A stretch of DNA of 55,848 bases, filler included, from Jimgerdemannia flammicorona (lineage: Eukaryota), in the NCBI GenBank assembly GCA_003990765.1. It is 2 parts of 2 records of this genome, joined end to end, with 100 filler letters (N's around TTAATTAATTAA, not from the genome) between each part and the next. Parts side by side here need not be neighbours in the genome. Positions count along the whole stretch, not along the records: positions 27,998 to 55,848 come from RBNJ01000595.1; 1 more part is not named here. The stretch is one strand, 5' to 3'. Numbering within the stretch: position 1 is the first letter of the stretch; every line of letters starts with the position of its first letter. Under the pieces are notes generated by a model. That model saw only the letters and a program-made list of their open reading frames with translations. It did no database searches and had not been told where the DNA came from. This document shows positions 14,758 through 38,032 of the stretch, piece by piece. The position numbers and the translations under genes are program-made.

Positions 14758-15500
14758 TTTTTTTTTTTTTTTTTTTTCGGAGAAAATATCTCGGAAACCA
14801 ACTTTCCTAATTCATATATATATCTTCGTGGTGATTGTGTGTGCGGCATTTGCAACTCCTTTACATAAATAATGAAGGACATGAACTCCTATTTTTGTTA
14901 TGATTTACAGCTTGGCGTTAAGAATAGCCTCAGCACCAGACGGACCAACTCCAGGTTCAGTCTCAACACCAACATACTTGACAACTAAATTATTAACTAC
15001 AATGGCAAACCTTTTAGCACAAAGTTCGCCCATACCCACATGCTTCAAGTTCTGGGTCAGACCAAGCACCACATAGAACTCGCCATTGCCATCACCAGCC
15101 ATTATGATCTTATCGTAGACGCCAACTACCTTTCCAAAAGCATTCATGATGTATCCATCAGTGATGGAAACACAGATGATATGGTCATAGCCTTGGTCCT
15201 TGAGCTCAGCATGCCTAGTCAGGTAGCTTGGAATGTATACCTCCTGGCAGGTCAGAGTAAAGGTGCTGGAGATTGAAAAGATAATGGCCTTTTTTCCCTT
15301 GAGGAAAGAGTGGGTCTTGAGGGTCACAGAGTGCTGGCATGCTTCAACACTAGCACTAGGGTCATGCTCGACATAGTGAAGGATGACGTTGGGTAGCTGG
15401 TCACCAACAGAAATAGTCATGGTTCAAGTGGTGCAGGTTTTATGGATGGTATATAGGAAAAAAAAAGAGACAAGAAGAACCAGAAAACAGGGGTCCCTGT
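14758..15500 (-). pseudogene. Processed pseudogene (retrocopy) of a type II/Prx5-family peroxiredoxin mRNA with UTRs and poly(A)
   Basis: 20-nt poly(A) (14758-14777), no introns, TSD ACAATTTCATATTTC(T) at 14743-14757 and 15501-15515. Confidence 0.93.
14905..15420 (-). CDS. AHP1: Open 171-aa frame of a Prx5/Ahp1/PMP20-like peroxiredoxin with degraded active-site motif and C-terminal PTS1 (AKL)
   Basis: KGKKAIIF-SISSTFTLTC (family VPGAFTPTC), GDGNGEF, KRFAIVV; N-terminal Cys28 at the Ahp1-type resolving position. Confidence 0.85.
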   Translation of the reverse strand: MTISVGDQLPNVILHYVEHDPSASVEACQHSVTLKTHSFLKGKKAIIFSISSTFTLTCQEVYIPSYLTRHAELKDQGYDHIICVSITDGYIMNAFGKVVGVYDKIIMAGDGNGEFYVVLGLTQNLKHVGMGELCAKRFAIVVNNLVVKYVGVETEPGVGPSGAEAILNAKL

Positions 15501-16378: not shown

Positions 16379-19300
16379 AATGTTTTTGGTAAAAGGTGAC
16401 TAGTAATATGGAAAGCGATTAATATATGGGTGCATGTACTAGGTCAGGTGAACCTAGGGCCTTCAACTGGCAGCAGGTGGGGAGGAGTTATGGTCTGGAG
16501 ATAGGGGCCTTCAGAGGGCCTAAGAGTGGAGAAGGCTCTGGAGGGGGACTGGTGTTCAGTGGCAATGGGGGAAGATCTGGTCTCCTGAGCTTCATGGATA
16601 AGGTAAAGGAGAGTGGGTGGCTGGCTGGTACTAGGACTGGTACTGCTGAGGGGAAGGATAAGATGAGCCTTGGGAGGGGGGGTAGTGCTCCAGCTAGGAG
16701 TGTAGGAGTAGGGGCTGGAGGTGCTGTGGCTGGGGGTGTGACTGTTGATGGGAGTGTGATGGGGAATCAGGAAAAAAAAAGAGATATGATGGCTGATGGC
16801 CAGGTGGGGCAGGGGTTCCCGATGCAGAAGGGGGATCTGGCAGAAAAAGGACTCCTTTTGCTTGAACTATTCAGAGCAAGCTAAGCTACATAGATGTCAT
16901 TTTGTGACAAGCAACATATTTTCAAGTTTTCCCATCATCTATTCTAATATACATGGTGCGGCAGGAGTCTAGCTACAGTATACAACAAGTCTTATCTGTT
17001 TTGGTGGAGTTTTTATTGGATGGCAACCCAGGATTCATCAAGCTCTGAGCGTTTGGAGAGAAGGAGGCTGGCCTGGGTCTTCCAAAGAGTTTTGTGGTGA
17101 CAGTTGGAGCTGGTGTAGGGGTGAGAGGAGTAGGTAGTCAGAAGAGACAGGCTGGTATTGAGAGTTGGCACACAGTGACAGGGGGCAGGAGGGCAGCTAC
17201 TAGGCCCTTGGGAGTAGGGCAGGGGGAACATAGTGTTGACAGGGGTGGGAGTCAGGTGACTGGCCAGGTGGCTGGTCAGGTGATGGGTCAGGTGCCCACT
17301 AGGGGCCAGGGGTCTGGAAGTGGTGTGGCTGGGACTGGTATTCCTGGGGCTGGGCTGGTGGCTGGGGTGACTGCTGGAGTGTTGGAGAACAGGAAGAAGA
17401 TGATGATGGCAGCAGGTTCTGGCAAACTGGTGGTGTGTCCCTTCTTCTACAAGTCAGTGTCAATGTGGGCCATTTCAGCGAATTTTCTGGGACTGGGGAT
17501 GTCTGCCAGGGAGGTCTTGTAGCTAGTGGGAGAGGAGATTATAGGGGCAGAGTCACTGAAGTTCATCCCATCAGCTGAGGCAGTTGAGATAGGATTTGTC
17601 GAGGAGGAGGAGTTGGTGAAGACCTTGGAGAAAGGACTGGTCATCAAGAACATCAAGGTTGGTATGGCGAGGTGCCTGAGATGGGACCTACAAGCAGTGC
17701 AGCTGGTGATTGAAGGGCTGCCGACATTGGGGAGACAGAAGACCAAAGGAAAGATGACAGAGGCACTGGGGGCATTTGGTGAGATGGTTGATTTTGGATT
17801 TTGGGTTCATGTTCTGGGAGGGGACTAAGCTAAGGAATGGCAATTGTAAGGTGATGGTGAGGCTGGAAGGCAAGGAGACCACAGGGCAAGGGAGGGACTG
17901 GCCAGAGGTGATCTGTATCAGAGAGCAGGAGTGCAAAGTGTAGAGAAGAAAGGGTTCTGAACAGGAGAAGGAGGAATTGCTAGTTGCCCTAGAGGAGAGA
18001 GAGACTGCGAAGGAACTGAGGAAGTGAAGATGGGAGGAGTTTGCCAAAGACTGGATCTGGATCCCAACAGATGAGAGGAGGAAGAGGTGGCAAAGAGCAA
18101 ACTGGGAGCACCTGCAGACAGTCCTCCAGGGCTCAGAAAGGGAGGAAAAGGAAAGAGCAGAGATGGCCAAAAATCAGATGGAAGAAGTGGAGATGGCTGA
18201 GGTGTCCTTTTCACAACTAGGGGGTGTGGAGAACTCCACTCATGCACTGGTAAAGGGGAAGTGTGCTGATAAGGAGGAGGCAACCACTGGGGGCTTTGAG
18301 GAGGTTATTGAGGTGGTACCAGAGACCTAGTTGGAGGATGTTCACATGGCAGGAGCAGCAAATGTTCATTGGGAATGCCCAGAAGTGGGCGAAGTGGTTT
18401 GGCTGGAGAAAGACACTGAGGAGGATGACCTGGTGGATGTGGCATCTGACATGTCAGTAGATAGAGAGATGCTGTAGAAGTTGAGTAGGACCCCAAGGCC
18501 AGCCACTCCTGGGCCCATGGTGATGACGGCGGATGACTGGTATCAGACAGTGCTCGAGGAACTTGCAGAGGAGGATATAAAGGAAGTGGATGTGTTTAAT
18601 AGATTGTAGGAAGCCTGGGAAGGGTTCCTCAATATGGCATTACAGGGGCCAAAGTTGGTGATAGTGATGGTGGCAGCACTTCTGGATGATGAAGGATATG
18701 AGGTAGATGAGGTCCATATGGCTGATATCAGGAAGGTAGCATCAGAGTGAGTGGATGCCTTCTGCAGTGGTGGGAATGGAGCCTGTATCTGGAGGGCTAT
18801 CTGTGAGGAATGGAAGGCAATAATCTGTGGTAGGGCTGAAAAGGTGATGGCGATTCCAACAGAGCTTTAAATATTTATATCCATGATGATGAACAGTCTA
18901 CACATATTATCGCTAAATATCAATGGTTTGTGTGATAGAGTGAAGCAAAGGCATTTATTTTGGTGACTGAAGATCAGGAGGTATGATGTAGTATTTCTGC
19001 AGGACATTTGGGCCTATGGGGAGTAAGATTATGAGGAGTGGGGCAAGGAATGGTATGGTAGTACAGGGTGGAATGAGCAGGTGGGCATCTTGGTTGGCTT
19101 GGGGAGAGGAGAGCTGAAGGAGGTTAAGATATATAGTGATCAATTGGTCTGGGGGAGATTGAAAGAAGAAGCTGGTGATGGACTGGTGGTAGGCTCTATA
19201 TATCTGCCAGCAGTTGGCAGAGAGCAAAATCAATGGGTGGAAGGTTGGCTGGATTGGGGAGGCCGAGATAAGATTGGGCTGGACATTCTGAGAGGGGACT

Positions 19301-22300
19301 TCAACATGGTGCATGACAGGACACTAGATAGGTCTGATGGTGGAGTCAGTGTGGCAGTTTCTACAGGGCTCTCGTGATGGCTTCAAGTTGAGAAGGAAAT
19401 GGGATTGGTTGATAGAGTATGACAATATCATGGTGAGAAGTCAGGGCTATTCACTAGGTGGCATCTGGTTGGTGAGGATTTGGTTGGCATGAGAATTGAC
19501 TGGATTCTGGTAGCAGAATGCTGGGGCAATGTTTTGGATTTGACAGAGGTATGGTGGTGTCCCTGGTCAGATCACTGGGGTGTCGAGGTGTGTGGGAGAT
19601 TCCAGGCAGCCAGTGGTGGTGGAGGTAGATGGAGACTTAATGTGGCACTACTCAAGAGACAGGTGGAGTGAGACCAGTTTGTTAAAATTGCAAGAAAGGA
19701 AGTGACATGGTGGAAGAACAGTGGCCAGTCAATAGCTCAGTGGTGGGGGAAATTTAAACATCTGGCAGGTGCATATTGGTGTGATGTAGGAGAGGTAGCT
19801 AGGAGGGAACAGAAGGATAGAGAAAGGAGAGTGGAGCAGGGGCTTTGCTAGTGGCTGAGACTTCTGGAAGGAGAGAACTCCTCAGGGGTATAATGCTCCC
19901 TATTGATCAAGGAGGTGGCTGAGTTGTGGTCAGATTTGAAGGCAGCAGAAAATAGGGTGGTGGATGGGTTGCTGGCAAGATTGTGAGCAAAGTGGTTGGA
20001 AGAAGGTGAGCGACCCACCAAATACTTGTCTGGAATCCTGAAGGCCAGAAGAGTGCAGCACAGCTGGGCTTCGGTATTGTATGAGGATGGAACTGAGGTG
20101 ACTGATATCACAGATATGCTTGGGGAGATCTCTGGTCAATAGTGCACTCTATGCCAGAATGATGGAGGACTGGTGGAGGGAGAGACAGTGCTGGAGGCTA
20201 ATAACAATTTGGTTGGTGGCTGGCCAGTGATGGCAGAGCCAGCAATTGGTGGGGTGGTAATGGGTAGGGTGACCCTTGAAGAGGTGTTGGAGGTTCTGAG
20301 GAAAGTACAGCAGGGGAGGATAGACTGCCTTGGGAGTTCTGGAAGGAGTATCAAATGGAGTTTGGAGCATAGCTCATAGAAATAGTGAACTTTACATTGG
20401 GGGAAGGCTGCTGGATTGGCAATAGCTCCTTAGGGCTAGTCTCTCTGCTCTATAAGGAGAAAGGAGACAGATGTGTGTGGCAGAACTGGAGGCCCATCAT
20501 GTTACTGAATGTGGATAGGAAGTTGGTTTCCAAGATTCTGGCAGGGAGAATGCAACAATGGATTGACTGATTGGTGGGTGATGAACAGCAAGGGTTTGTG
20601 AAGGGGAGACAGATTCAAGACAGCACAGCCTGAGTGCAAAATGTCTTGGAGGGTTGTAGAAGCAGGCAGATCAATGGAAGAATGGTGTTCTTGGACTAGG
20701 AGAAGGTGTACAACAGGGTGTGGTGGGACTACTTGGAGGTAGTTCTACAGAAGGCCAGGTTTGGCATGAGGGAGACTCAAAAACTAATGGATCTGGTGCA
20801 AGGTTGCAGGGCAACAGTGTTGATGAATAGGTGGAGTGGCCTAGAGTTTTTCTTAGGGCAAGGTGTGCCACAGGGAGATCCTCTTTCACCCCTGCTTTAT
20901 ATTTTATCTTTGGAGCCCTTGTTAGCATGGCTGAAGAGGAGGCTTATCAGGTTAAAGATAGGGGATGTGGTCTGGAAGCTGGGGGCCTTTGTGAACAACA
21001 TGGTGGTAGGGTTGGGCAGGGTGGAAGATGTGGCAAGCTTGCAGGAAGGGGTAGGACAGTATGAGATATTGGCAGGAGTGAAGCTGAACTGGGGTAAGTG
21101 TGAGACCATGGAGCTTAGAGCTAACTTGGGGGAGCATGGACACTTTGGACAATTAGTTGGTCCTGGGGAGGCAGTTCGATATTTAGGTGTTTGGTTCTCA
21201 GTATATGGGACAGTGCTGCCAAAAGAGTAATGGTGTGGATTGCTACAGAAGTGGGAGAATGCCTTGGTGGACTGGTCTGGGAGGAGCTTCTTCTTGGTTG
21301 GGAGGATTATAGTCTTGAACGTATATTGGTTACTGAAGCTATAGTACTTGGGATATCACTTGAACTTTCCAGGATGGGTGGTGCAGAAACTGAAGAAGGT
21401 GGTTGAAGGATGGCTATGGCAGAGGAGGAGACCACAGATTAGTTGGAAGGTAATGGTGATGCTGAGGGCAGATGGAGGTCTGGGGCTGGTGGACTTTAGA
21501 AGGCATCTGAAGGTGCTCCAGGGCTGGTAGGGTTATCGAATGGTAGAATTAGGAGGGAAAGGTTGGAGCAAACTGGCTATGAATAACTGGGAAGTTAGGT
21601 TCTGCCCCCAGGGTGAGGTTCGGAAGAATATGTAAGGTTTGCTCCAGGTTGGAAGGGTTGGCAGGTTGTGCTATCGGGGATTCTGGTGGAGTATTGTGGA
21701 AGCTTGGCTAGTAATAGGCCTGATGGGCCCAGAGCCTGGCAAAGAAGAGAAGGACCCAGATCAGCAATGGTGGCAATTTGGTGAGATTCATATTGGCAGC
21801 CACCTGTTGGTTGACTACTCTCTAACTGGGGTGATGGAGTGGATCCGGACTGGTCTACTTGAGAGGTGGCCAGTTGGTTGGCAGAAGGCTGGGTTTGGGG
21901 AAGAGTGGGAGTGGGGTTGGGTTTGGAGCTGGGGGACCTCACTACTCAAGATTGCCCCACCTAAGTTCTGGGTGGTATGGTGGCAATTTTTGCAGAGAAA
22001 TGTCATACTGGGGTATAGGATGGGGTGGATGGTAGATAAAGGTGTAAAGGAATGTGAGTGGTGCTATAAACTGGATGGGGGAGTGGTGCAGATGCCGGAG
22101 CATATTCTGGTGGCCTGCTCAGGGGTTGAAGGATTTTAGCAGACATTAGAAGGTTATTGGGGAGAAGAGAGTGAGTAGGCAGGGGGCCCCACTTGCCAGG
22201 TGATCAAGCATCGACTGGTAGGGGACATTGGGGATGTCTGGGGAGGCCTGGGTTGGATTATCGGCATCTGGGTACTGATGGCAGTATACTGGTGGTGGGT

Positions 22301-22630
22301 GTTCAAGAGAAATCCTTGGATGGGAATTGGCAAATTGGTGGAGCGGTGGAAGGGGTTACTTTTGGAAGTGGTGCAAGGGTAGTGATATCAGAGGAAGAGG
22401 CACCAGTTGGGGGCCATGAAGAAAGTGTTAGAAATTGTCCAGAGGAGTCAGGGGTACCTTGTACTTAGTAAGAAGGGGGTGAGGTGGAAAGAAGGTATAG
22501 GCTGACAAGCTCTTCCTTGTATTATAATTTAATAGTCGAAGGTTGGGTTCATTGTTGTTCTAAGGTAATCGATGGGATAAGTGGATAGTATAACTCTATA
22601 GACTAGTGGAATAAAGGAAGTCCAAGAGAC

Positions 22631-22672
<42 letters not shown>
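16379..22672 (+). mobile_element. LINE-C: full-length (~6.3 kb) L1/Tx1-clade LINE, disabled; ORF1 ~16426-18870, ORF2 ~18883-22470
   Basis: APE endonuclease SLNING..FLQD..GDFN..RIDWIL..SDHW; RT NWRPIMLLNVDRK, GVPQGDPLSPLLYILSLEPL, AFVNN (ADD site); C-terminal CEWC..EHILVAC; AATAAA 22610-22615 and 39-nt poly(A) 22634-22672. Confidence 0.93.
16841..17094 (+). mobile_element. 254-bp insertion in LINE-C ORF1 (possible non-autonomous DNA transposon or captured fragment)
   Basis: Compositional break from the G-rich LINE; CA...TG ends; TGG repeated on both sides; removing it plus one TGG rejoins ORF1 in frame (QKGDL-V-TVGAG). Confidence 0.5.
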
Positions 22673-22675
<3 letters not shown>

Positions 22676-25600
22676 ACACCTAGCAGATGGTATAATGGGG
22701 CTGGCGGTGACTCTGTTACTCAAGAAGTCGATCTCGGAGTTCATGGTAACCTTGTGCTTCCAGGGCTTGGTGGTAATGACAAGGATGGTTCTGGGGCTTG
22801 TTTTGAAGCAGGTGGCTGGGGCAGCCTCAGTGAAGTTCTTGAAGGGTCTGGAGGGGGTCAAGGTGGGCTTTGAGGAGGTGGGCCTACTGGATGAGGTGCT
22901 GAAGACTGAAGTTGTGGTTGGGGAGGTAGTGGTCCCCATGGTGTGGTGCTTGTGATGGGACCCCAGGGTGGTACAGCTCCTGGTGAAGGGGGTGCCCATA
23001 GTGACTAAGAAGGAGACTAAGAAGAGGGTGGAGGAGGTGATGATTGAGTATGGTGATATAGTGGACATTGGCTTTCAGGTGTGGGAGGGGACAATGATCA
23101 GAACAGGTGACATTGATGTCAGGATTTAGCTGGCAGGTAAGGAGGCCACAGAGAAGGCAAGTGACTGGCCTTCTGTGCTGATGTGGGGGGCATTTATCTG
23201 TAAGGTGTCGAGGGTGAAGGGGAGTGAGGAGGAGGAGAAGGACTTGTTGGAGACACTGGAGGAGATGAGTGGAGCTGTGGAGAGGAGGGCAAGGGCCTGG
23301 AAGATGTATGAGGAGTCAATACATCTAGAGGTTGTGGATGGGAAATATATCTATACTGACAGGAAGCAGTGGAAGTAGGTACAGGGGCACAGGAGGCAGA
23401 GAGAGCTACTTGTGAGTATAAAAGTAGAGGTGAAGCAGAAGACAGTAGGAGCTGAAGGGTCTGGAGGTATTGAAGCCAGTGTTTGGGCAAGTAAAGGGGT
23501 TGGAGAGGTGGAGGCAGGTAAAGAAGGGGCTGCAAGAATGCTGAGCAAGGACCTCTTTACCAACAGCACTTTTGAGGTCTGGGAGCCAGAGCTGAATGCA
23601 ATCCCCCCCCCCCTCTTATCAGAAGGGACCCAGCTGGAAAGAGATGGACAATGGAGAATATACCGATGAAGGGGGCCCAGTGAGTATACTTTGGGGTCCC
23701 TGATGTGGGAAAAGAGGGTCAGGTGGTGGCAGTTGGCAAGGATGAGCTGGTGGATGTCCCTGAGGAGGAGTGGGATGAGGCTACCAGTGTAGGGGCTGAC
23801 ATCATGATGTTGGACATAGGATGGCCAGGGACTCCAGGAGGGAAGGAGGTGGGAAACTTGCTGTAGATGAGCAAGGTGATGGATAACCTCATGGCTGAGA
23901 CTTTGGGGGAAGTGGACCTGCGAGTAATGCCTGAGGAGCATTAGATACAGATTTTGAGTGGTGAGAGAGTGGTGGAGGCACTGAAGGGGGAGATTCTTTC
24001 GATTTTCCTGGAGGAGGAGAGATATGAGGTTGATGTAGTGAGGAGGGCCAAGCTGGCAGTGGTCGCTGGTGAGCAGGCAGTATACTGTTGGGTGGAGTGA
24101 CATGGTTTGTGGTTCTGGCAGGAAGCCTGTCACAAATATCATGAGGACTTTGAGGAGCGAGAAGATGGAGCAATGGTAGAACTTCTGGGAGGGTTGAAGG
24201 CACAGGAAGCTGATGAAAGGGAACTAGCTACTGATCATGACTTGGATTTATTGCAGGAGGAGCAGGATGTGGAATTGTAGAGAGTGGGTTCATGATACAA
24301 ATTTTTCTCTTATGAACAGTATAACCAACATTTTCTCTTTGAATGTGAATAGGCTAAGGGGATCTGGGCAGCATAAGAACATTTTTAATTAGCTCAGGGG
24401 ATTGGAGGCTGGTCTCTTTTTACTGCAGGATGTTTGGTGTGAGGATGAGGATAATCAGGTTGAGTGGACTAGGGAATGGAGTTGGGCTACTACTTGATTT
24501 GGAAAAGTGGTGATTCTGGTAAGGAAGGGTAGAGGAGACTTGGGGGGTATTGGAAGCTAGAGTGATTGCTTGGTCTGGGGAGATTGACATCAGCCAGGGT
24601 AGAAGTCAGTGAGGGTTGGCTCTTGCTACTGCTCTGCAGTTAGGGGTGAGAGGATTGCATGGATTAAGGAGCTGCTGGAGGAGGGTATTCTCTTGGCAGA
24701 AGGGGTTGATGTGCTTGGGGGAGACTTTAATATGGTTCAGGATCAGTATCTGGACCAAACTGATGGTGGAAGGAGTGCAGGAGGGAGAAGTGGAGGCCTG
24801 GATACATGGGAGGAAGTGGAGCAGCTGAGCTTCTTAGGAGATATGGGCAGAATATGATGGGGCAATTCCAGGGTCTACATGCATTGGGTGAATGGCTTAG
24901 ATATAAGGATTGACTAGATTCTGACAGCAGAATGCTGGGGGTCTGATGTCTGGAAGATATTGGAGGTGGAATGGTGCCTGTGGTCTGATCACTGAGGACT
25001 ATTGGGACAGGAGCAGTTTGGGGGGAGTGGAGATGGACCTGGACATTGGTGCCTTAACTCCTCCCTGCTAGCTGAGAAGGGGTTGTGGGATTCGTGAGTA
25101 GAGGACATTCAGGCGAAAGTTGCTTGCTGGAGGTATGAGGGTTTGTCTGTGGGTGTCTGTTGGATGAGATTGAAAGAGGCTGTGAGAGTCTATTGGGGAG
25201 GGGCTGAGAGAGAGGCTGGGAGGTGGAGGAGGAAGTACATGAGGTGTACTTCCAACAGGCTAAGGAGATTGCAAATGGATTGGGCAGGTCTGCTTACTTC
25301 TGATGGGGTAGAGGATTGGAGGTTAGCATGGATTAAATTAGAGATTTTGGAATTGCAACAGGTGTTGAGAGAAGAGGAAGAGATGCATATGTGAGGTATG
25401 GCTGCTAGGCTAAGGTGGCAGGGGCTTAAAGAGGATGAGAGGCCTACTAGATATTTATCCCATCTGCTCAAAGCTAGGAGGGTGCAATATTGATGGGATG
25501 GAGTCCAAGATGCTGATGGGGACATAGTATATGGCATGCAACAAATCTTAGGGGTTTTGAAAGAGAGATAGTAGGGTTTGTAGAGTGAGAAAGAAGGGGG

Positions 25601-27897
25601 TGCTGATGAGGTGGTTATTGAAGATATATTAGGGGAATGGAGGCTGCCACAAGTGGCTGGACTGGATGACTTGGCCTTGCCGGTGCAAGGTGAGGAGGTC
25701 CAGAGTGTCCTTGTAGCAACTAAAACTGGAATAGCACTAGGAGAGGATAGACTACCATGGGACTTCTGGAAGAAGATGGTTAGGGTCCCTGGTATTTTGG
25801 GTGAAATGACTGCTCTCTGTGATCATGTTCTTCAGAGTGGTGAGTGGGTTGGAGAGTAGGACCTCAGGCTGGTGGCTTTATTATACAAAGACAAGGGGAG
25901 GAGAGAAGACTGGAAGAACTGGCAACTGATCATGCTTTTAGATATGGACAGGAAGATGGTGACTAAGGTGGTTATTGCAAGGCTGCAGAAGGTTGCCCAA
26001 CAGGTGCTGGGGGAGGAGTAGTGGGGCTTTGTTGGAGGCAGACTTATAAGAGATGGGACTGCATAGGTGCATGGTATCATTGAAGGGGTCCAGGCTTGTG
26101 GCCTGGATGGAAGGTTGGTCTTCTTGGACCAGGAGAAGGCCTATGACCAGGTCCAGTGGGTTTGGCTGGGCAAGGTGTTGGATCATATTGATGTACCTTC
26201 AGGATTTTGGGCTTCTATGTTGAATCTGCTAGAGGGCAGTTGGGCAGCACTGATGTGTAATAGTTACTATGGTCTGGCATTTACCTTGAAAAGAGGGGTT
26301 CCTCAGGGGGACCCCCTGTTCCCTATTCTTTATGCCCTCTCATTGGAGCTATTGATGGATAGAATTCACCAGAAGGTGGTAGGGCTCTCTATCTATAGCA
26401 TAGTGTGGAAGGTGGGAGCCTTTGTGGATGATATGGTAGTTGGCCTTGGGTCTGTGGTAGATGTTGAGGCACTTAGAAAGATGGTGGAATGGTATGAGGA
26501 TCACTCTGGGGCAAATCAACTGGCATAAGTGTGAGACTATAGTGCTTGGGAATAGACTGATAAGTGGGGATATCATTGGAACAATTATCCCTACTGGTGA
26601 GGTAGTATGATATCTGGGCATCTTTCTCTCTATGTATGGCTCTGTCTTGTTATGTGTATGGTGAGAGAGCAGGGTGGCTGTTTGGGGGGAGGCCCTTCAA
26701 GGTTGGGGAGGCCGCCATATCTCTCTAGCAGGGCAGGTATCAATTCTGAATATATACTAGTTCCCTAAGCTGTGGTATATAGCCTACTACCTAGACTTCC
26801 CAGCTTGGGTGGTGAAGAGGCTGATGAAGGTGGCTAAGGATTGGATTTGGGCAGGAAGGAGGTCCCAGATCAGTTGGAATACTCTTGCAATACTGGTGGT
26901 CAGGGGAGGTCTTGGCCTTGTGAATTTCCCTAAGAGATTGTACTGCTTGCGAGTCTGGTGATTGAAGAGAGCAGCTGAACTGCAAGGAGGGGGTTGGGTG
27001 CCTCTGCTGTAGAAGGTGTGGGAGATGAGAACCTCTCCCTAAGGGTCCTCAGGAGATCTACTCTCTTTGGTGGGGCTCAATGGAATTCAGAGGCTGCAGT
27101 TTAAGGGCTTTTGATGAGGAGTGGTCAATGGAGTACACAGGATTGGTCTGTGCTGGCAGGGCAATGAGGGGGAGGTATTGTGGGAACCTAGTATGTGGCA
27201 GTAGGATAGGCTGCTACTGGGGGGTACTCTACTTGCTGTCTTTGATATTGGGGACAGAGTGGAGTATCAGCAGGGTCTTGGCCAGGATCTTTGGCCAAGT
27301 GGTTGGCAGGCAGTTGGGATTGGTGAGGAGTGGGACTGGGCAGGTATCTGGTCTTGGAGTGCTGAGGTATGGTGGTGGCTTCCCCCCAAGTTCTGGGTGG
27401 TGTGGTGGTAAATGCTATAGAGGAATGTTATGCTGAATTTTCACACTGGGCATCTGGTAGATGGTGGCTGTTTTGATTGTGAGGAGTGTTACAATGTAGG
27501 GCAAGCTAGGGGTTTGGTGCAGATGCTGGAACATTGGCTGGAAGAGTGTGAGGTTTTGGGGGACTTTTGGATTGAAATAGGGAATAGACTGGGTGTGGAG
27601 TGCAGGCCAGTAGGTGAGGGGGATCGCTGAGAGGACTTGAGATCTCAGCTAGTGGGGGGGGTGGGTGATAGTTGGCTCACTGTCAGGTGGGTGTTAGCAG
27701 TTTAGGTGAGATTGGTGGGACATTGGCTATTTGTGTTTGAGGAAGGGCAGTAGATGAGACTACAGGAGAAGGTTTTAAGGTGGGAGGAGCTGTTGGGGGA
27801 TCTGTTGACTGGATGGTGGATGGGTTGGGGTCCTTCAGGGGGGTGATGGTGAGGTTTGGTGGTGAGAATATGTAAACAGAGTGGTGGGAGGGGGGGG
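22673..27897 (+). mobile_element. LINE-D: 5'-incomplete L1/Tx1-like LINE abutting the LINE-C tail; 3' end lost in the gap
   Basis: ORF1 homologous to LINE-A; ORF2 from ~24312 (MNSITNIFSLNVN, LLQD, LGGDFN, SDH); RT LDQEKAYD..RGVPQGDPL..AFVDD; CEEC..EHWLEEC. Confidence 0.9.
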
Positions 27898-27997
27898 NNN
27901 NNNNNNNNNNNNNNNNNNNNNNNNNNNNNNNNNNNNNNNNNTTAATTAATTAANNNNNNNNNNNNNNNNNNNNNNNNNNNNNNNNNNNNNNNNNNNN
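27898..27997. other. Assembly gap with artificial six-frame stop linker
   Basis: N runs flanking TTAATTAATTAA at 27942-27953. Confidence 0.95.
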
Positions 27998-28440
27998 GCC
28001 ATTCTTCTTCAGACACTCCACAAGAACAGGAGAAGTGAGTTAGAAGAGATACTCCTGAACCAGAAGCCGGACCATCTAGGACAACCCCCAGCTCTACCCT
28101 GCCAGACCTTGAAGAAGATGAGCACATGAGTATAGAATCTTCAGCTGATGAAATGCCCATCAGAAATGAGAGACTACACCCCAAGGGACCAAGACTCCGA
28201 AGAAGCAGCAAGCCCCATGCAGCAGTCTCACTTTGAGAACATATCCGCCTACAGAATGCTGGTCTTACAGTTGAGCAAGTCTTCAAGAATGCACCAGAGG
28301 TCAGGCGCAAATTCCTGAAAGAAGCCAAGGAAGATACCAAGAGACTTCCAGTCTAAGGACCACACACTCAAGAACCTAGTACTATCCACACAGTCCATGA
28401 GAGCCAGCGACATGAACATCAATCTACAAGACTCGCCAAT

Positions 28441-28800
28441 GGAAAAGTGCATGGTGAAAATGCCAGAATTCTCATTGATACTGGAGCAGCAGTATGCATT
28501 ATCACCCAAAGGATGTTGGAGCAAATTGGATGGGGAATAGATGAAGGAACCAAAGCAAGAGTTATCATGGCCAACAGATCAGCTTCCACACCCCTTGGAC
28601 TTGTCAGAGACATCCCCATTCAAGTTGGAAAGGTCTGCCTCAATGTACCCAAAGCCGTCGTGACCCCCGCAACCTCCTATGACCTGATCCTGAGAACTGA
28701 CTGGTTAAGCCAAGTTGGAGCCAATGTAGATATCAAGAAACAATTCCTGGTCTCAACTCCTGGTCTTCTCCATTCATGGACAGAAGCACAAGGTGCCCAT
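28441..28800 (+). pseudogene. Retropepsin aspartic protease domain
   Basis: ILIDTGAAVCII..VIMAN..YDLILRTDWL; a 13-bp tandem duplication at 28741-28766 shifts the frame at its end. Confidence 0.9.
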
Positions 28801-29911
28801 TGACTTGAAAGGATTATCCAAAAAGACGAATCAAGCCTCAGAAACAGAATGGCAAGGATATGGCGACACCCCCACTACTACTGAGGATGAAAGCGAGGCC
28901 AATTTCCTATAAGAACTAGGAAGTGATTTCGATGTCCCAAGGGACCAAGAAAGTGAACAAGAAGACTCTTTCATTGGAGTTATTGGTGTTGAAGGCCTGG
29001 AAGAAAGCATTGATAGAGCCATTAATGCAAGGGCAGCACTTGAGTTTGCAGGACCTTCTGCTCAACCACCACCACCACTGGTAGAAAATCAGATCATGTA
29101 AGCCTTTTGTCGAGGCATATGTGAACACTTCATCAGCTTCCACTCACCAAGAGATTGCAGCAATTGCCGAATCCTGGATCTCAAGAAGGTTCCAATACCA
29201 GAAATTGATGACAAGGACGAATTGAAGCAAGTACCATCTCACAGCCAAATACAACCTCAAACCCCGAAGACCTTCAAGAAGACCTATAAGAAAGGACGGA
29301 AGATCCTCGTCTGCTAAACATTCGAGTCCCTTACCATCAAAGGAGAAAGCAACAGCTCTTACACTATCACCTGGGCCCTCCAGATCACACAGCCCACCTA
29401 TGACAAGTATCAGAAGAGATTCCCTACCAGTAGAGAGATCAAACAGTGAAATGAAGACTTTGTCAAGAAGGGACATTGTGATTGTGGAAAGACCTTTACC
29501 TGCCACTGGTGTGAACATCGAGATGTTCACCTCAGCGAGGATGTCTACAAGAGCCACGTCAAGAGAAAGGATCCCACCCTGCAAGAACCTCGAATTCGCT
29601 GGGCCTGCCAGAAGTGCAAAGAAATCAACCATGAAGGAGATTGCAAGTTCAAGAGCAAGACCTCTATCTGGGACCTACCATTGGAAGTTCTTGCCATCAT
29701 TCGCTGGTACTGCCACCCTCATCAAGGAAAAGAAGGTACTAATCTTGCCTTCATCCTTATGGAAGCTCTGGACTCTCTAGGAAAGACTGGATTCAATTAC
29801 ACAAGAAACTTAAAGACAGGAGCTCACTGGCCTTTCTTCAAACTGGAGTGCATGGACTTCTCACCTATAATGGCAACAGCTGAAGTGCTATTTCTCAAAG
29901 CTCAACCAATT

Positions 29912-30316
29912 ATCCAGGTCAAGCTGCCTTCACCCTGGGCACAGCCACCTCTTGCACAAACAGAAGGATCAGTTGGTTATGACCTCTGCCTCCCCTACCA
30001 AGCAAGAATCCGACCCAGAAGTACCAGGACTTTTGACCTATAGATCGCACTCGCTATACCACCTGGGCATTATGGACAATTGGCCTCAAGATCCTCATTG
30101 GCAACCAAAGGAGTCACAGTAGAAGGAGGAGTCATTGATCAGGACTACTGAGGTCTCTTGAAGGCCATTATCTGCAATTCTAGTAGAACCAGCTGATTCT
30201 TCAGTCCTATGGAAGCCATCTGCCAAATCCTGTTTATCAAGACATCACAGCCGACCATCCAAGAGATAGACCAACTGGAAGATACCAACAGAGGACAAGG
30301 AGGCTTTGGGAGCACC
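29912..30316 (+). pseudogene. dut: Trimeric dUTPase domain within the Gypsy polyprotein
   Basis: All five motifs in one frame: GSVGYDL, ASRSSLA, GGVIDQDY*G, AICQI, RGQGGFGST. Confidence 0.92.
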
Positions 30317-30879
30317 AATAGAAATCTATGGACACCATCTATTGAGGTTCATTTGGCAACAGTTGCTTAATTCCGACAAATGAGACCCCACATCTGCCGC
30401 CCAATCTGAGTAAGAGAAGACATCCTCCTGCAGCCCTACCAGCAAAAAGACCTAGATGTGCACCTACCAGTAGAAGCAAACAACTTGATATTTGCACCAT
30501 CACTGGAGCTTCAAAAGGAATACCACATCCTCCTGGCTGAAGAATGAATTCATGACCAGATGTCACCGATCCACATCCCTATCAGAAACTTGGGCTTCGA
30601 AGTGATAACTATCCCCAAGGGAACAACACTGGGATATTTTGAACTACTGATAGACACCTACATGGAAGAAGTCTTCGAATTCTTGGGAAATGGCAAGCCC
30701 TCTCCAGTGAGACTGATGGTACCAGGGAGGAAGACTCAGCAAATTCAGCAATCAAAGCCATCGACATCGAGACAACTCTAACCAAGGACCAGCAACAACA
30801 GATACAGGAGTTGATAGAAGAGTACAAAGATATATTTACCACCACATATGATAACTTCCCACCATATCAATACAGAGAA

Positions 30880-32220
30880 CACCCTATACATACTGGAGAT
30901 GCAAGACCAATCTGACAACGACCCTACCGAACACCACATTATCTGATTGAATTCGAACAACAACACATAGATGAAATGCTACGAAATGGAGTCATCAGAC
31001 CATCATCAAGCCCCTGGGCTTCACCAGCAATCATAGTACCAAAGAAAGGAGGATGGAGATTAGTCGTGGATTTCAGAAAACTCAACAAAGTTACCACAGA
31101 AGATGCCTACCCACTGCCAAGAATTGATGACCTCATCAATGCCCTCAGAAAAGCCAAGTACATGACCACTACTGACCAGTTCCAAGGATTCCAAGTAATA
31201 TCCATTGCCAAAGAAGATATCTGCAAGATGGCCTTCATCACCAGACAAGGACAGTACAAATACCTATGAATGCCCTTTGGACTCTGCAATGCACCTGCCT
31301 CATTCTAATGAATGATAAACTATGTCTACCAGGACCTCATTGGAAGAAATGTACTAGTGTACATAGATGATATAATCATCTACTCCGAGACATTCAAGCA
31401 GCATTTACAAGACCTCCGCGAAGTATTCAATACCATTCGAAATTCAGGACTCAGACTCAATGCAAAGTAGTGCTTCTTCGGAAAACATCAAGTCGAATAT
31501 CTAGGATATGTTGTCTCAGCTCAAGGAATACATGCTGACCCCCGCAAGGTGGAGAAAGTCAAGAACTACCCAACCCCAACCTCAGCAAAGGAGACCCTAT
31601 CTTTCCTTATGCTGGCATTCTACTATTGACGATTCATCCCAAGGTTTTCAGATAAGGCAGCACCTCTCCGAGATATCTCCAAGAAGGACCAACCATTCTA
31701 CTGGAAAGAAGGACAATAAAAGTCATTCGACCTACTCAAGAAGGCCCTTACCGAAGCCCCTGTCCTGGTGCGACCAGACTTTGGCAAACCATTCATCCTG
31801 GCAACTAATGCCTCAGCCTTAGGACTTGGATCAATTCTGTCTCAGCAAGATGACCAGAAGAGGGAGCATGTTATCGAATATGCTAGCAAGGCCACAAACG
31901 AAACACAAGCGAACTATGGAGCCACTAAGTTGGAATGCCTAGCAGTAGTTTGGGCTGTGGACCACTTCTGACACTATCTCTTGGGAAAGAGATTCGCCCT
32001 CATCACTGACCATCAAGCTCTACAATGGTTGTTCAATAAGCCGGAGCCCTCAGGAATCTTCACTAGATGGATCATGTCTCTGCAAGAATATCAGTTCACT
32101 ATTGTCTACAAGAAAGATGCTAAGAATTCCAACATCAATACCCTGTCAAGAATCCCACGAAACCAACAAGAAGGGAAGGAGCCCCTACAAGAGAAGGCTA
32201 CTTCCTGCTCACCTAAATGA
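30880..32220 (+). pseudogene. pol: Reverse transcriptase and RNase H
   Basis: SSSPWASP..VDFRKLN..YPLPRIDD..MPFGLCNAP..VYIDD (~31360); FILATNAS..YASK..LECLAVVWAV..TDHQAL; one frame ending at TGA 32218-32220. Confidence 0.95.
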
Positions 32221-33437
32221 ACCAAGAATTGCGCCTCGCCCTCACCTGGAGTCTGCACCATAGAAGCTTCAAGAAAGAAATCCAACCAGCCCACAAGTTG
32301 TTTATCCAAAGGAATTTCAAGAAATTCCAAGAAAGTGATGGCAAACTTTGGAGAATAGAAGGAGAGCAGTACACCCGAGTTCCAAGAGAAGAAGAAATAT
32401 CGAAGATCCTGACAACAAATCATGACCAAAATGCACACCGAGGAATTGGCGCCACAATTGCAACAATCAAGAAACGATACTGGTGGCCCAAGATGAGAAA
32501 ACAAATTTCAATGCACATTCAACAATGTGATACCTGCCAAAGATACCAACAAAAGCCTACTGATAGAGCACCATTAATACCAATCGCAGCACCAGCTGGA
32601 GCCTTTCAAAGACTGGGAATAGACATTATTGGACCCCTACCAGTAACCAGCCGAGGAAGATGCTATATCCTCACTATCGAAGACCATCTGACAAAATGGC
32701 CTGAAGCCTTTGCCATTGAGACGGCCGATGCTCATACAATTATTGGGATCCTGTATGATGAAGTTTTCAGCCGCCATAGTGTGCCCAAGGAAATCATTAC
32801 AGACCAAGGCTGAGAATTCATCAACCAAGCCATGAAGACCTTTGCAAGCAACTTTAAGATCAAGCTACGACCAACAACAGCCTACCACCCTCAGGCAAAT
32901 GGACTCACTGAATGAATGAATCAGACCATCAAGCGAGGTCTTAGTAGAACCAGAGATCAACTAAACTGGGATATCTATCTATCGGCAATTCTGTTCAGCA
33001 TCCGTACCTCTAAGGCAACCACTACCAAACAGACTCCCTTCTATTTGGTGTATGGCCGAGAAGCACAAGATCCTACTGAACCAATCCAGCTAGATCTGTC
33101 AAAACGAGTCACAGAGGCGATCACCTGGTTACATGACATATGCCAGCAAGTACGAGGATTTATCACCAAGGCACAAGAACGACAAAAGAGGTACTACGAC
33201 CACAAAGCTGACCTTGAACCCATGCTCATTGGACAAAAGATTCGGGTGTACCATACCATCATAGAAGGAAATTGGAGTACCAAGCTTGAACCAAAATGGG
33301 AAGGCCCCTATCTCATACACCAAGTATTCTCGAACCACACTTATCAACTCAAGACCTTGGATGGAGTTATAGTCAAGACCAAGATACACCGCAACCACTT
33401 AAGACTCTACTACTCAAGAGAAGCAAAACGCATTTGA
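32217..33437 (+). pseudogene. Integrase as a separate ORF (H2C2 zinc domain, rve core, GPY-type C-terminus)
   Basis: HDQNAH..YWWP..CDTCQ; GIDIIGPLP; ITDQG; AYHPQANGLTE; KWEGPY; ATG overlaps the RNase H stop (ATGA). Confidence 0.9.
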
Positions 33438-33651
33438 ACAATCCCATTCACTCTGCCTGTATTGTCTCTGCTGGAGATATGACAGACGTTTCACTCAGAA
33501 CTCAAGAAAGCCAACAACATTGGAACCAGACTCAAGCCCATCCACATGACAGACATTGTTACTAAGAAATTGCCTCGGATTACAAGAAATACTATTTCTG
33601 ATGGGTTCGAATCCCCAGCCGCGACTATGGGAGCCCTCGCCCTAGACAAGG

Positions 33652-34924
33652 ATGGCCAGTCCTCACAAATGCGCCGACATTCTGCTCGTCCCTGGAGTTA
33701 AGATCACTCAACTCTGTGTAACCTTCACCGCTGAGGACAGCTCTAATTTCGCAAGGGGCAGATGTGACATACACAATTGACAACAGAGTACTGGTGACTG
33801 CTAAGATCAGATGATATAATGGCGTGACAATCAAATAGACAGCCTGACCCATTAGGTGATCATCCCAAAAGGAGACAAGATAATCCAAGCCAAAATGAAG
33901 ATCACGTTATTTAAGGAACCATACTCCGCCTCAGGGACCAGTACCAAAGAACCAAGTACCTACCACATAATGCCTCCCATTCGCCGATCCAACCAGACCT
34001 CCCGCCGCTCTATCCCTTTGCCTGGCCCAAAGACCCTGATCTTTGAAGCTATCAAGAAGGCCATCTGGCACCCAGATACTTCCGAACACTTGAACTTCTA
34101 CACCGAGGACCTTGGACACTTCATCAACTACCGGTATATAATGACCCAGTAGCTCAAAGACACTACCGAACGAATGACCCTCTGGCATGACTACGAAATC
34201 GGACACCACCTTTGCAATGAGACTCAAGAAGATGACTGGGAAGGGCTCATTACCGAATTGATAACCACTAGCTGGCTAATCAAGAGAGCCCTCCTTGTCT
34301 GCCAAATCTTCTGCCATATTTCCTGGACCATAGCACACTTGCAAGGAGTAACAGCTGGCAGCCTCTCCTGCCTTTCAACTGGAGATGCTGACTGGATAGA
34401 ATCTGAAGTAGCCAACTCTATTGGCAGCAACCGCGTCGCCATAGGAAGCCAACAAACTGAACCTTCTCAGCCAGGTTTCCACATCACCCCACTTTGAGAC
34501 AACCATCAAGGTCACCTATTGAGTCTTATGGAGATATTTGAAGGACCACCCATTACCATAGAAGCACCCGTTGAAGCTATCCCAACCACCCACCGCTCTG
34601 TTAGCCACAATTCACATCTCATCATTTGGGAACCGAATCAAGAAGAAGCCCAAGAACTCCAAGTTCCTGCCCCTGAAGAAACCCCCTCTGACACTGAAAC
34701 TGACGAGTTTTCAGAAGAAGAAGAGGAGCAACAGAGAGTCTACCAGTCCTCTGTCCGCATTCAAGCTGTTCAAGGATTGGAGAATGTTGTTGAAGATGAC
34801 TAGCCACTTTTCTACCCCCTCACCTCTTGGCCGGCACTTCCCCCTTTTGAGGAGAGGTATGATGAAGAAGAAATCTTAACCCAGTAAGATTTGCCTGCTG
34901 TGGATGAAAGGTACTATTTCCTCT
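33652..34924 (+). pseudogene. Accessory ORF(s) of unknown function at the env position
   Basis: Track ORFs 33856, 34174 and 34519 share one frame, extendable back to ATG 33652, separated only by single stops; acidic C-terminal part. Confidence 0.6.
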
Positions 34925-35753
34925 AGAAGTACCACCCGTCAGCTGTGAGAATTGTACAGCCTTCATATCAGTAAGTCAGTAAGTCTGAATCCAGCATTGC
35001 TATCCAGTGCCACCGTTTTCAGCATTTTGTCAGCAAGTCCGAATCCGGCGTTGCTACCCAGTACAACCATTTCCAGTGTTGCTATCCAGTGCCACCGTTT
35101 TCAGCGTTTTGTCAGCAAGTCCGAATCCAGCATTGCTATCCCCTACAACCCAATCCATAGTAAACAATAGCCTGCACCTCGCATCGTACAAGCCAATAGC
35201 ATAGCGAATTTTTGTCACAATGTAGTATACCTTAGTCACATCCATAGCTAGTAAACTTGTATAAATAACCCATATTCTTAGAGTGAATAAACCTCAGTCA
35301 GTTTGTGTTTAAAAGTAAAAAGGATTACAAAGAAACCACTGCCTCCAAGAGACTGGATAAATTCTGAGAACAAGATAACAACCTAGAGCAACGGATCACT
35401 CGGAAGTTTGAGTTAAAGAATTTTCTCTTGCCATGGAAAGAAAACATTATCTGACCACCACCATTCGAGACCACCATTCGAGATTCAAGACCCAGAAACC
35501 CAAGTTACCCAGCCAAAGGACACAAGACCGCAGCCAAAGACCCAAATGACTGCCAGGAACCTTTCAAGTTAACCAAGACGGACAATCGAACAATCGAACT
35601 CCCGCTATCAATTATCATACGAATTGGATAAACCAATCACATGACCAATGACCCATAACCGTCGCGAATGCACTCAGACATATACCATGCACTCCACCAA
35701 GTGGCACCTTGAGTCGTGCCAGAAGCTACTAGGGATACAAACTGAACACCACA
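34858..35753 (+). repeat. 3' LTR of the dUTPase Gypsy element, with U3 internal repeats (~34977-35140)
   Basis: Preceded by PPT GAGGAGAGG; termini TATGATG (decayed TG)...CACCACA; TATAAATA ~35259 and AATAAA ~35286; repeated ttgctatccagtgccaccgttttcagc..gtccgaatcc units. Confidence 0.7.
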
Positions 35754-37672
35754 CTATATATACTGTGCAAAATTATTTCTGAGATATATTTGATAATCTA
35801 TTGATAGATCCACTTCTTATCATATATTTAAGACTCATCTTACTGATATATTCTAAGCATTGATGACATATATTAGATATATTTGATATAGTGATTATAT
35901 ATACAGAAACTTTTATACTATTTAATATCTCATTGATCATATAAAGATTATTATATTTCAAGACTATCAATAGCTCATTATCATTTAAATTATATACTGT
36001 TATGTCTTTTGAATATATATATATCTCTTTATTGTTATAGAATATCATCTTGCTTATTGAAAAGAGTTTTTTACCAATTTCTGATATGTATAATATATCA
36101 AGGAAGGTACCAGTGGGTTCAGTGGGTTCTACAATATTGCTATAGAAATATATCCTTATATTTTCCTTTTCTTGAGTATAGATGATATTGTTATCTCTCA
36201 GTTTGATAGATATAGGGTACTCAAAAGACTTATATATAGAGAACTATTTTCTATATAGTATTATATATTGTTTGGCTCTAGAATATATGAGCTAGATATT
36301 ATTATCATTAACTATATTTATAATATATTCATTACTAGTAGTACTAATATTATGACTACTTTTTATTAGCTTAAAAGTATTTCACTGACTGAAATTTATA
36401 GATGATGAGTTAGTAGATTTGATGGTAGAACTACTCATAGATATAGATCTCATACTGACAGAACTGATAGTAGAAATATAGTCATCTATATATATTGCTT
36501 ACATGAAGAATATATCACTATTGTCACTTTCAGTAGTGTTGGCATTATCACACTTCCCTTTGCCTCAATAGTTCTTTCCACTGCCTCTATATTGTCAATA
36601 CTGGCTTCCATATTATTGCTTATTTTTACTACTCTTCTTGTCATTTTTCTAGCAATAACAATAGTGCTTACTGTATCTATATTTATGTACTATAGTATTT
36701 ATATTAGCATCATACTTAGTTAATTGATAACTATTATATTGATTTTAGATTTAAATTTATTAGTCTTATTTTCTATACTTTTGACTTCATTTGGTACTAT
36801 GTCTACAGAACCCATAGTGCTACTACCATTTTCTTAATACATTTTCTCATTTATAAAACTCATTATTATATATGTATAGTCTATAAGTCTATCACTTTTA
36901 TATATAGTATAATAATAACATTATATATATATATCCAGCAGACCTCTTATAAGTACTATAACCTTATCATTATTGCTAATATAATTCATAGATATATTGA
37001 GAGAATTTACTTAATTCATCAGATTATTAATATAACTGGCATATTAGCAGATACTCTTCTTAGACTTTATTTATAGATTAAATAGCAGATATTTCAGATA
37101 GAATTGATTTGATATAGATACTTATATATAATAATTATTAGAGTCTACTATATCTTATAAGCTATATATCACAGTATATATTATAAGCTTTATTTGAGAA
37201 TTTGATAATGTAAATATAATCTCATATAATGTTTAGTAATTTTTTGTAGTATTATAATCTTGAATTAATACTTATAGTTTTGTATACTCTACTAAGCTAT
37301 ATTTATTAAGGAGATTTACATATCATAGAACATCCAAATAGTATAATTTTTCCCATCAAAGATCAGAATAGACCTCTTGGCTATATTTATAATTATAACT
37401 AAGACTGTGTTTCCTATATTTATTGTAATTATATCTATAGGAATACTTATATTTAGTATATCTATATTACTAGGCTAATTGTCACTTATTATTTCTAGTA
37501 TAATATATATTTAAGAAGTATTTTTTTTTTTTTTTTTACTATAGTCACTTAGTGCTAATAGAGCTTATAACCTTTATTATAAAATAGAGGTTAATTTTAT
37601 TAAAGTTATATAGATCATATATTTTATATATTACTAATAAATGATATAATATATCAAGTTGCCATTCTAACA
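35754..37672 (-). mobile_element. Copia-A: heavily decayed Ty1/Copia 5' half (LTR ~37575-37672, PBS, gag-protease), interrupted by the Gypsy element
   Basis: PBS GGTTATAAGCTC (37572-37561); FLDILYISEIGKKLFSI resembles Copia-C VNVLYAPDIGKNLFSI; LTR starts TGTTAGAATGGCAAC. Confidence 0.8.
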
Positions 37673-37862
37673 AGATTAGTTATATAATTCTATAGTTATT
37701 GAAGATGAGAAAAAAAATTTAAACAACCTATTATTATGTATTTTTTTATAAATATTAGTAACTATATATTATTATATTAAATTTTTAGAAATCTTACAAA
37801 GAGTGCCAAATAGTTTTATATATTTCTATTATAAAGATACTGGAAAAAGGTACTTTTTATAT

Positions 37863-38032
37863 TCTTTTTTCTAGAAAAATTTACTAATTTATACTAATTG
37901 ACTAAAGTTACTTAATTTTTTTTTTTCTCTAAAAAATTATTAATTTATATTAATTAATTAAAGTTACTTACTTTATTTTATTTTTTATTATTTTTTTACT
38001 AAAAAATTACTATTACATACTGATTGACTGAA
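37863..38032 (+). repeat. Three diverged ~60-bp AT-rich tandem units
   Basis: tttttt-ct-a(g)aaaaatt-tactaatttatactaattgactaaagttactta recurs at ~37863, ~37921 and ~37991. Confidence 0.55.

Follow-up and report, generated by a model that had tools for sequence, protein, structure and literature searches.

The stretch of DNA analysed here (the window) comprises 55,848 nucleotides from Jimgerdemannia flammicorona (NCBI GenBank assembly GCA_003990765.1), and carries on its plus strand, from 27998 to about 35600, a Ty3/Gypsy retrotransposon in which a Cys/His-rich module is fused in front of a dUTPase. Base composition is uniform across this 7.6-kb stretch (A 33%, C 26%, G 20%, T 21%). Pfam places protease, dUTPase, reverse transcriptase (RT), RNase H and integrase in that order between 28294 and 33434; the dUTPase apart, this is the order that marks Ty3/Gypsy (Metaviridae) Pol proteins. 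The full arrangement is protease, acidic tract, a module of ~270 residues, dUTPase, RT, RNase H and integrase (Table 1). The element is dead and truncated at its 5′ end, and this copy no longer codes for any protein. Flanking long terminal repeats (LTRs) together with gag, a further mark of Ty3/Gypsy elements, are missing from this copy, which says nothing on the family. In a self-comparison of 27998-35600 against the window no LTR pair was found, the sole repeat being an 82-bp tandem, and the 5′ end of the element is lost in the gap. No further copy of the element occurs elsewhere in the window.

Table 1. Features of the Ty3/Gypsy element and of the gap to its left (positions count along the window)
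Feature	Position	Strand	Remarks
Gap	27898..27997	.	Two 44-N runs around TTAATTAATTAA linker; removes 5′ part of the element (LTR, most of gag)
Aspartic protease, frame 1	28294..28753	+	Pfam gag-asp_proteas E 1.9e-10, RVP_2 E 2.5e-07
13-bp tandem duplication	28741-28753 / 28754-28766	+	12 of 13 bases identical
Acidic low-complexity tract after protease	28802..29083	+	One in-frame stop; 67% identity to P0003
Cys/His motif A	29102..29167	+	AF..G.C.H...F.S...C..C; C-x-H-x9-10-C-x2-C; invariant in 3 of 3 sequences
Cys/His motif B	29471..29542	+	G.C.CG...C..C..R.VH.S.D; C-x-C-x5-11-C-x2-C plus His; invariant in 2 of 2 sequences
Third Cys cluster CQKCKEINHEGDC	29606..29644	+	C-x2-C-x4-H-x3-C; lineage-specific insertion
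F-box-like helix-1 motif TSIWDLPLEVLAIIRWYC	29660..29713	+	LPLEV at 29675-29689
Conserved block, family unassigned	29735..29833	+	GT.L...A.D..G..G.NYTR......WP; BLASTP against P0004 residues 830-860 E 1e-05
dUTPase	29906..30316	+	Pfam PF00692 E 8.7e-28 (29948-30316); three in-frame stops
Linker before RT	30317..30915	+	Frame 2 to frame 1 within; colinear with P0004 as far as 30682
RT and RNase H, frame 1	31036..32091	+	Pfam RVT_1 E 5.9e-32, RT_RNaseH E 8.6e-36
Integrase, H2C2 zinc domain and catalytic core, frame 0	32388..32891	+	Integrase_H2C2 E 2.4e-17, rve E 2.4e-13

Relatives of the module

A phmmer search with the 382-residue module region alone against all 1.84 billion representative proteins (E ≤ 0.001) returned two relatives only, P0003 (E 1.4e-40) and P0004 (E 2.3e-05, library-wide). 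P0003 is a 153-residue fragment (ENA) that runs from the end of the protease through motif A, with 67% identity over its frame 2 part. P0004 (JGI/IMG; source label 'dUTP pyrophosphatase') has 1179 uninterrupted residues, and is laid out as gag with a CCHC knuckle, protease, long acidic tract, module, dUTPase and a linker before RT. Each is a single sequence on a short contig (6987 bases for P0004 and 682 bases for P0003). P0004 is colinear with the window over 28294-28749 in frame 1 and over 29084-30682 in frame 2 (tblastn E 5.5e-49), and its residues 349-498 match the window protease, whose active-site motif is DTGA within LIDTGAAV, at a tblastn E of 7.7e-20. By BLASTP, the window read-through matches P0004 at E 6e-43 with 28% identity. 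The module taken without the dUTPase still matches it, at E 3e-09 for the half that holds the Cys motifs and at E 1e-05 for the downstream block. The acidic tract occupies the same place in P0004, where it is longer than in the window, and its length varies among the relatives.

Because colinear relatives exist, the module was inherited and is not junk or a random open frame. Judged from these alignments, it is coding sequence passed down within a rare lineage of elements, of which three sequences have been found so far. A nested foreign insertion was considered and ruled out by the colinear relatives and by a base composition equal to that of the whole element.

Searches with other queries did not enlarge the family. 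With the read-through as query (region 20-400, longer proteins), none of 1463 candidates bore the module, and with region 560-890 of P0004 the only protein returned was P0004 itself. Alignment A1, used as query among longer proteins, returned P0004 and three further proteins (P0005-P0007), the latter matching over the dUTPase only, or 27-30% of the query. Pfam and inspection identify these three as two Copia-type proteins and one Gypsy Pol with a C-terminal dUTPase, and the module is not present in them. When contigs of prokaryote genomes were scanned with the module alignment, a pattern matched at 129 stretches, of which 0 were confirmed. Pfam gave nothing credible when the module region was read in its other frames or on the opposite strand. 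The statement in the preliminary description that such a module lies outside the standard Gypsy architecture is in keeping with these results, as the module has no Pfam family and only two relatives among the representative proteins.

Cys/His motifs and other conserved parts

Over the module, the window copy and P0004 are 27% identical (68 of 248 aligned columns), and 7 of the 8 Cys residues in the P0004 module align with a Cys in the window. The same form, G-x-C-x-[H/C]...C-x2-C with four ligands, recurs in motifs A and B, which hints that they may have arisen by internal duplication of one small zinc-binding unit. The stretch between them, about half of the module, is poorly conserved. Downstream, the G.NYTR...WP block, which contains invariant columns, continues unbroken into the first dUTPase strand. 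A weak cross-alignment between motif B of the window and motif A of P0004 was also observed (E 0.74).

The third Cys cluster is not conserved and sits in a 19-residue segment that is missing from P0004. Compared with the retroviral CCHC knuckle (PF00098, C-x2-C-x4-H-x4-C) it is one residue short and gives no zf-CCHC match; the same Pfam scan does detect the gag CCHC knuckle of P0004 (residues 169-184, E 6.5e-05). Among the features singled out in the preliminary description, motifs A, B and LPxE[IV]xxxI persist in every relative whose sequence spans them, and the third Cys cluster does not.

For profile searches, hmmscan was run on Pfam-A with an E limit of 10; matches beyond about E 0.1 may still be lost to the HMMER filters. 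Within the module, zinc-finger families gave no match to the window read-through, its 166-residue stop-free piece, P0003 or P0004, and NCBIfam returned 0 families on the module. The zinc-finger and F-box models that the preliminary description named for testing find no Pfam match in the module of the window copy or of P0004. A Pfam DUF5617 hit on the window copy (E 0.24) was dropped, being far below the cut-off and not found in P0004. The sole PDB sequence-profile match, to uL15 of 6zu5 (E 0.29), was regarded as chance, as it is not significant and falls partly on the first dUTPase strand. In the protein atlas, residues 636-885 of P0004 had no usable match. Positions 29450-29947 of the window matched unnamed clusters, most of them from Basidiomycota (0.95), and zinc modules of RAG1 (0.94), with 146-158 shared features and a recognition value of 1914, below the guide value of 2300; this is a weak lead towards a Cys/His-rich and perhaps basidiomycete relationship and was not used as evidence.

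Reading frame, stops and decay

The 13-bp duplication moves the reading from frame 1, in which the protease is encoded, to frame 2. P0003 crosses this point without the duplication, its residues 1-18 corresponding to frame 1 and its residues 13-153 to frame 2, and we place the frame change on the duplication because P0003 reads straight across. Once the duplication is removed, a single frame leads from the protease through 382 extra codons into the dUTPase (28802-30316), much as the preliminary description had it. The peptides quoted there were recovered at their positions, namely CRGICEHFISFHSPRDCSNC from 29108, HCDCGK from 29474, NHEGDC ending at 29644 and TSIWDLPLEVLAIIRWYC.

Frame 2 contains 8 stops in 547 codons between 28730 and 30370 (four TAA, three TGA and one TAG). 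Over 28802-29947 it has 4 stops in 382 codons (three TAA and one TGA), and the other five frames have 7, 21, 11, 17 and 34. In-frame stops number 8 in 525 codons in the RT-RNase H region (30643-32217) and 2 in 406 codons in the integrase (32217-33434), and the element has at least three frame changes. Since the stop density and base composition of the module match those of the rest of the element, the module decayed together with it. The proposal that the stops are C-to-T mutants fits 4 of the 8, where the relatives have Gln at two TAA and Arg at two TGA codons; the other 4 align unreliably or variably. Across the element, CpG is at 0.34 and TpG at 1.36 of expectation, which fits methyl-CpG deamination as the origin of the TGA stops. 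Repeat-induced point mutation (RIP) of the Neurospora type was rejected as the source of the stops, with TpA/ApT at 0.64 and (CpA+TpG)/(ApC+GpT) at 1.5 against the usual RIP thresholds.

The dUTPase

The match to PF00692, the family of trimeric dUTPases, covers read-through residues 407-529 and profile positions 6-128 of 129. With almost the whole profile covered and the domain order given by Pfam, the complete dUTPase between protease and RT reported in the preliminary description is confirmed. Sequence searches of the PDB gave 78 matches to this region at E up to 10 (best E 4.3e-23), and the 60 best are all dUTPases or dUTPase-containing. One of the stops in the dUTPase falls inside the conserved GVID..Y(R)G motif.

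The F-box-like motif

The preliminary description had recognised the first half of an F-box in the module and proposed that the element may have encoded an adaptor of the Skp1-Cullin-F-box (SCF) ubiquitin ligase. LPLEVLAII (29675-29701) fits the helix-1 pattern of the F-box, commonly given as LPxE(I/L)(L/I)xxI. A count of LPxE[IV]LxxI over all six frames of the window (111,692 codons) gave this site and no other. By chance the pattern is expected about 0.0004 times per 2000-residue polyprotein of this composition, a figure that overstates significance as the pattern was chosen post hoc. The counterpart in P0004 is LPVEIYQQI (in SLPVEIYQQI), which keeps the L, P, E, [IV] and I and differs at the sixth residue. 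This pairing comes from global alignments and lies outside the significant local match, which starts 20 residues later.

Beyond this first helix motif, which alone fits, the similarity ends, in line with the earlier remark that only the first half of an F-box is evident. No F-box family in Pfam matched the window read-through, 29450-29947, P0003 or P0004. The F-box consensus has hydrophobic residues at positions 10 and 13 of helix 1, where the window has R and C and P0004 has E and F. A loop of about 9 residues comes after the LPxE helix, no conserved Trp-bearing third helix is present beyond it, and the G.NYTR...WP block, the best-conserved part downstream of the motif, corresponds to nothing in an F-box.

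Structure prediction did not settle the fold. AlphaFold2 run on the three-sequence alignment gave a mean predicted local distance difference test (pLDDT) score of 35, with the module below 50 throughout and only the dUTPase blocks at 50-68. Run on a two-sequence alignment of 29642-29947, it gave a mean pLDDT of 39 and placed two helices ahead of strands, in a model too poor to judge. In a Foldseek search of the latter model against the PDB, 0 of 358 matches reached E ≤ 0.001, and no F-box protein was among the 50 listed.

With no F-box profile match, with the residues after helix 1 off the pattern and with the third Cys cluster not conserved, the proposal of an F-box or SCF adaptor did not gain support; the idea is weakened, not refuted.

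Other features of the window

The integrase is followed, within 33483-35150 (plus strand), by open frames over about 1.4 kb; one of them extends over 33856-34800 if 2 stops are read through. This region has no Pfam match and no chromodomain, and it could be an extra open reading frame or part of the 3′ LTR region. The 82-bp tandem repeat (34990-35150; 2 copies, 89% matches) lies beyond these open frames.

The gap at 27898-27997, with its TTAATTAATTAA linker, looks like an artificial contig join. To its left lies a G-rich element with RT fragments that is unrelated to the Gypsy element on the right, and the adjacency of the two may not be real. Positions 17000-27898 have 36.5% G, 13.4% C and CpG at 0.08 of expectation, a strong strand asymmetry, and contain two plus-strand RT fragments at 20700-21230 and 26067-26528 (RVT_1 E 8e-10 and 3e-11). 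A mirror-image skew is seen at 2000-7500 and 11000-15500 (G 10-12%, C 27-29%, CpG 0.01-0.09). Within the second of these skewed blocks, the minus strand holds a 172-residue open frame at 14905-15423 with a Pfam Redoxin match (E 5.7e-18), possibly a host gene.

To the right of the Gypsy element, Copia-type Pol fragments occur at 45166-47199 on the plus strand (Pol_BBD E 2.3e-23, SH3_retrovirus E 2.3e-13), and a further one with a weaker match is found at 35773-36243 on the minus strand (Pol_BBD E 1.3e-04). The latter partly overlaps an AT-rich region at 36000-38000 (G+C 18-25%), which with TpA/ApT at 1.13 and (CpA+TpG)/(ApC+GpT) at 0.9 looks RIP-like, unlike the Gypsy element.

Discussion

Our analysis defines a conserved orphan module of ~270 residues that carries two probable zinc sites and is joined to the N-terminal side of the dUTPase of a Ty3/Gypsy element, and this is what is new here. 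LTR retrotransposons seldom fix extra domains, and each case reveals something that the element needs from its host or does to it. As the locus itself is dead, its value lies in defining the family and not in this copy. The data directly support the architecture, the homology to the two relatives, the retention of the Cys/His ligands and the decay of the copy.

We favour the reading, to which we give a probability of about one half, that the module is an orphan accessory domain, probably zinc-binding, that is fused to the dUTPase and tethers it, in an element that is now a dead Gypsy copy. Zinc binding, release together with the enzyme and the tether are the steps that we infer. Each of the two Cys/His motifs would bind one zinc ion, as their ligand spacing and conservation suggest. 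A helical stretch beginning at LPxE[IV] would follow, and then the G.NYTR...WP block leading directly into the dUTPase. In the active ancestor, the module would have been released from Pol along with the dUTPase, and would then have held the enzyme to the nucleic acid of the element or to partner proteins inside the particle. A dUTPase tethered in this way would remove dUTP at the place where complementary DNA is made, keeping uracil out.

Several observations weigh against this reading. No zinc-finger family in Pfam or NCBIfam recognises the module, and the case for zinc binding is made by ligand spacing and conservation. The relatives number two, of which one alone covers motif B and the LPxE motif, and conservation is thus read from two or three sequences. 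Both structural models are poor, and no fold backs any function. Release together with the dUTPase is an assumption, as no protease cut sites are evident. Basic in the window, the region between the two motifs is mixed or acidic in P0004, which disfavours a conserved nucleic-acid-binding surface. Finally, a tether leaves the conserved LPxE[IV]xxxI unaccounted for.

In two other readings the module has a lesser role. The acidic tract and the module could be a flexible linker with protease cleavage sites, in which the Cys motifs stabilise a small fold that binds nothing. The acidic tract is of low complexity and variable length, the stretch from motif A to motif B, about half of the module, is poorly conserved, and pLDDT stays below 50 throughout the module, all of which is consistent with such a spacer. 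In a linker, however, one would seldom expect two Cys/His motifs of four ligands each to be retained along with a 30-residue block that is 39% identical, and the low pLDDT extends to the dUTPase (50-68) and thus reflects an alignment of three sequences and not disorder, so that we regard this explanation as unlikely. A related possibility is that the module, or the part from LPxE to the dUTPase, entered the element along with the dUTPase, having been the N-terminal part of a host gene, and has no role of its own. The unbroken passage of the conserved block into the first dUTPase strand fits such a capture, dUTPases are reported to have been acquired independently at different positions in fungal Gypsy families in the available text of PMC2864245, and the module is missing from P0005-P0007, the three other retroelement proteins with a dUTPase. 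Yet no cellular protein bearing the module is found among the 1.84 billion representatives, and a useless part would not hold 7 of 8 Cys at 27% identity; we consider a passenger origin improbable, and slightly more so than a spacer.

The most far-reaching alternative takes LPxE[IV]LxxI for the first helix of a divergent F-box. This F-box would attach to the Skp1 of the host, the Cys-rich part would hold the substrate, and the element would in this way turn an SCF ubiquitin ligase against a restriction or silencing factor of its host, which would be degraded. What speaks for it is a perfect match to the helix-1 pattern that is unique among the six-frame codons of the window, the retention of L, P, E, [IV] and I in P0004 despite the low overall identity, and a helix set on the LPxE stretch in the low-confidence model. 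In addition, profiles miss some F-box-like motifs of viruses because these are too short. These points are set against the lack of any F-box match in Pfam at E up to 10, whether in the window copy, in P0004 or in the 166-residue stop-free piece, and against the position of the motif outside the significant local alignment with P0004. The deviation of helix-1 positions 10 and 13 from the hydrophobic consensus and the ~9-residue loop with no conserved Trp-containing third helix after it argue in the same direction. The low-confidence model, too poor to weigh either way, has two helices followed by strands, and its Foldseek search gave no significant match and listed no F-box protein. An F-box would also normally be expected near the N-terminus of a free protein and not within a polyprotein. 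We therefore hold an F-box adaptor to be very improbable. The same low estimate applies to its minimal form, in which LPxE[IV]xxxI would be a Skp1-binding motif invisible to profiles and the Cys/His motifs would be the substrate end, making a Pol-borne SCF adaptor against host defence.

The tethering domain that we favour can be set beside several known systems. P0004 shares the whole order of protease, acidic tract, module and dUTPase with the window copy, and differs in its 27-28% identity and in being without the third Cys cluster; P0003 shares the part from the protease end through motif A. With the F-box domain (PF00646 / PF12937), the likeness is limited to LPxE[IV]LxxI in the window and LPxE[IV]xxxI in P0004, and the module differs in giving no profile match, in lacking the pattern of helices 2-3 and in its odd position inside a polyprotein. 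In the literature searched, no description of an F-box or SCF adaptor in any LTR retrotransposon was found.

The position of the dUTPase between protease and RT is already known in fungal Gypsy elements. It is reported for PosPlaTy3-5, a Gypsy element of Postia placenta (PMC2864245), and the same article cites dUTPases, at positions that it does not specify, for elements of Phanerochaete chrysosporium and Tuber melanosporum. Compared by description only, these fungal elements resemble the one studied here in Gypsy domain order and in a dUTPase between protease and RT, and differ in that the available text of the article mentions no Cys/His-rich module before the dUTPase. The terms dUTPase, zinc and F-box do not occur in the available text of a survey of fungal LTR elements (PMC3248453), and no description of such a pre-dUTPase module was found in the literature on fungal dUTPase elements or on retrotransposon F-boxes.

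The closest parallel in arrangement is found outside the fungi, in Mason-Pfizer monkey virus, a betaretrovirus in which, according to the available text of PMC1802613, nucleocapsid and dUTPase form a fusion protein. As in the module described here, the polyprotein of a retroelement has Cys/His motifs immediately before its dUTPase, and this analogy suggests that the two may work alike, with the enzyme tethered through a zinc-binding part. In the virus, the zinc part consists of the CCHC knuckles of the gag nucleocapsid, upstream of the protease, and the likeness is one of analogy and not of homology. The module in the window is placed after the protease, its ligands are spaced differently and no zf-CCHC model matches it, and the gag knuckle of P0004 is separate from it. 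If the module does tether the dUTPase to the replication complex, it would represent a second, independent invention of the betaretroviral arrangement of a zinc domain joined to a dUTPase.

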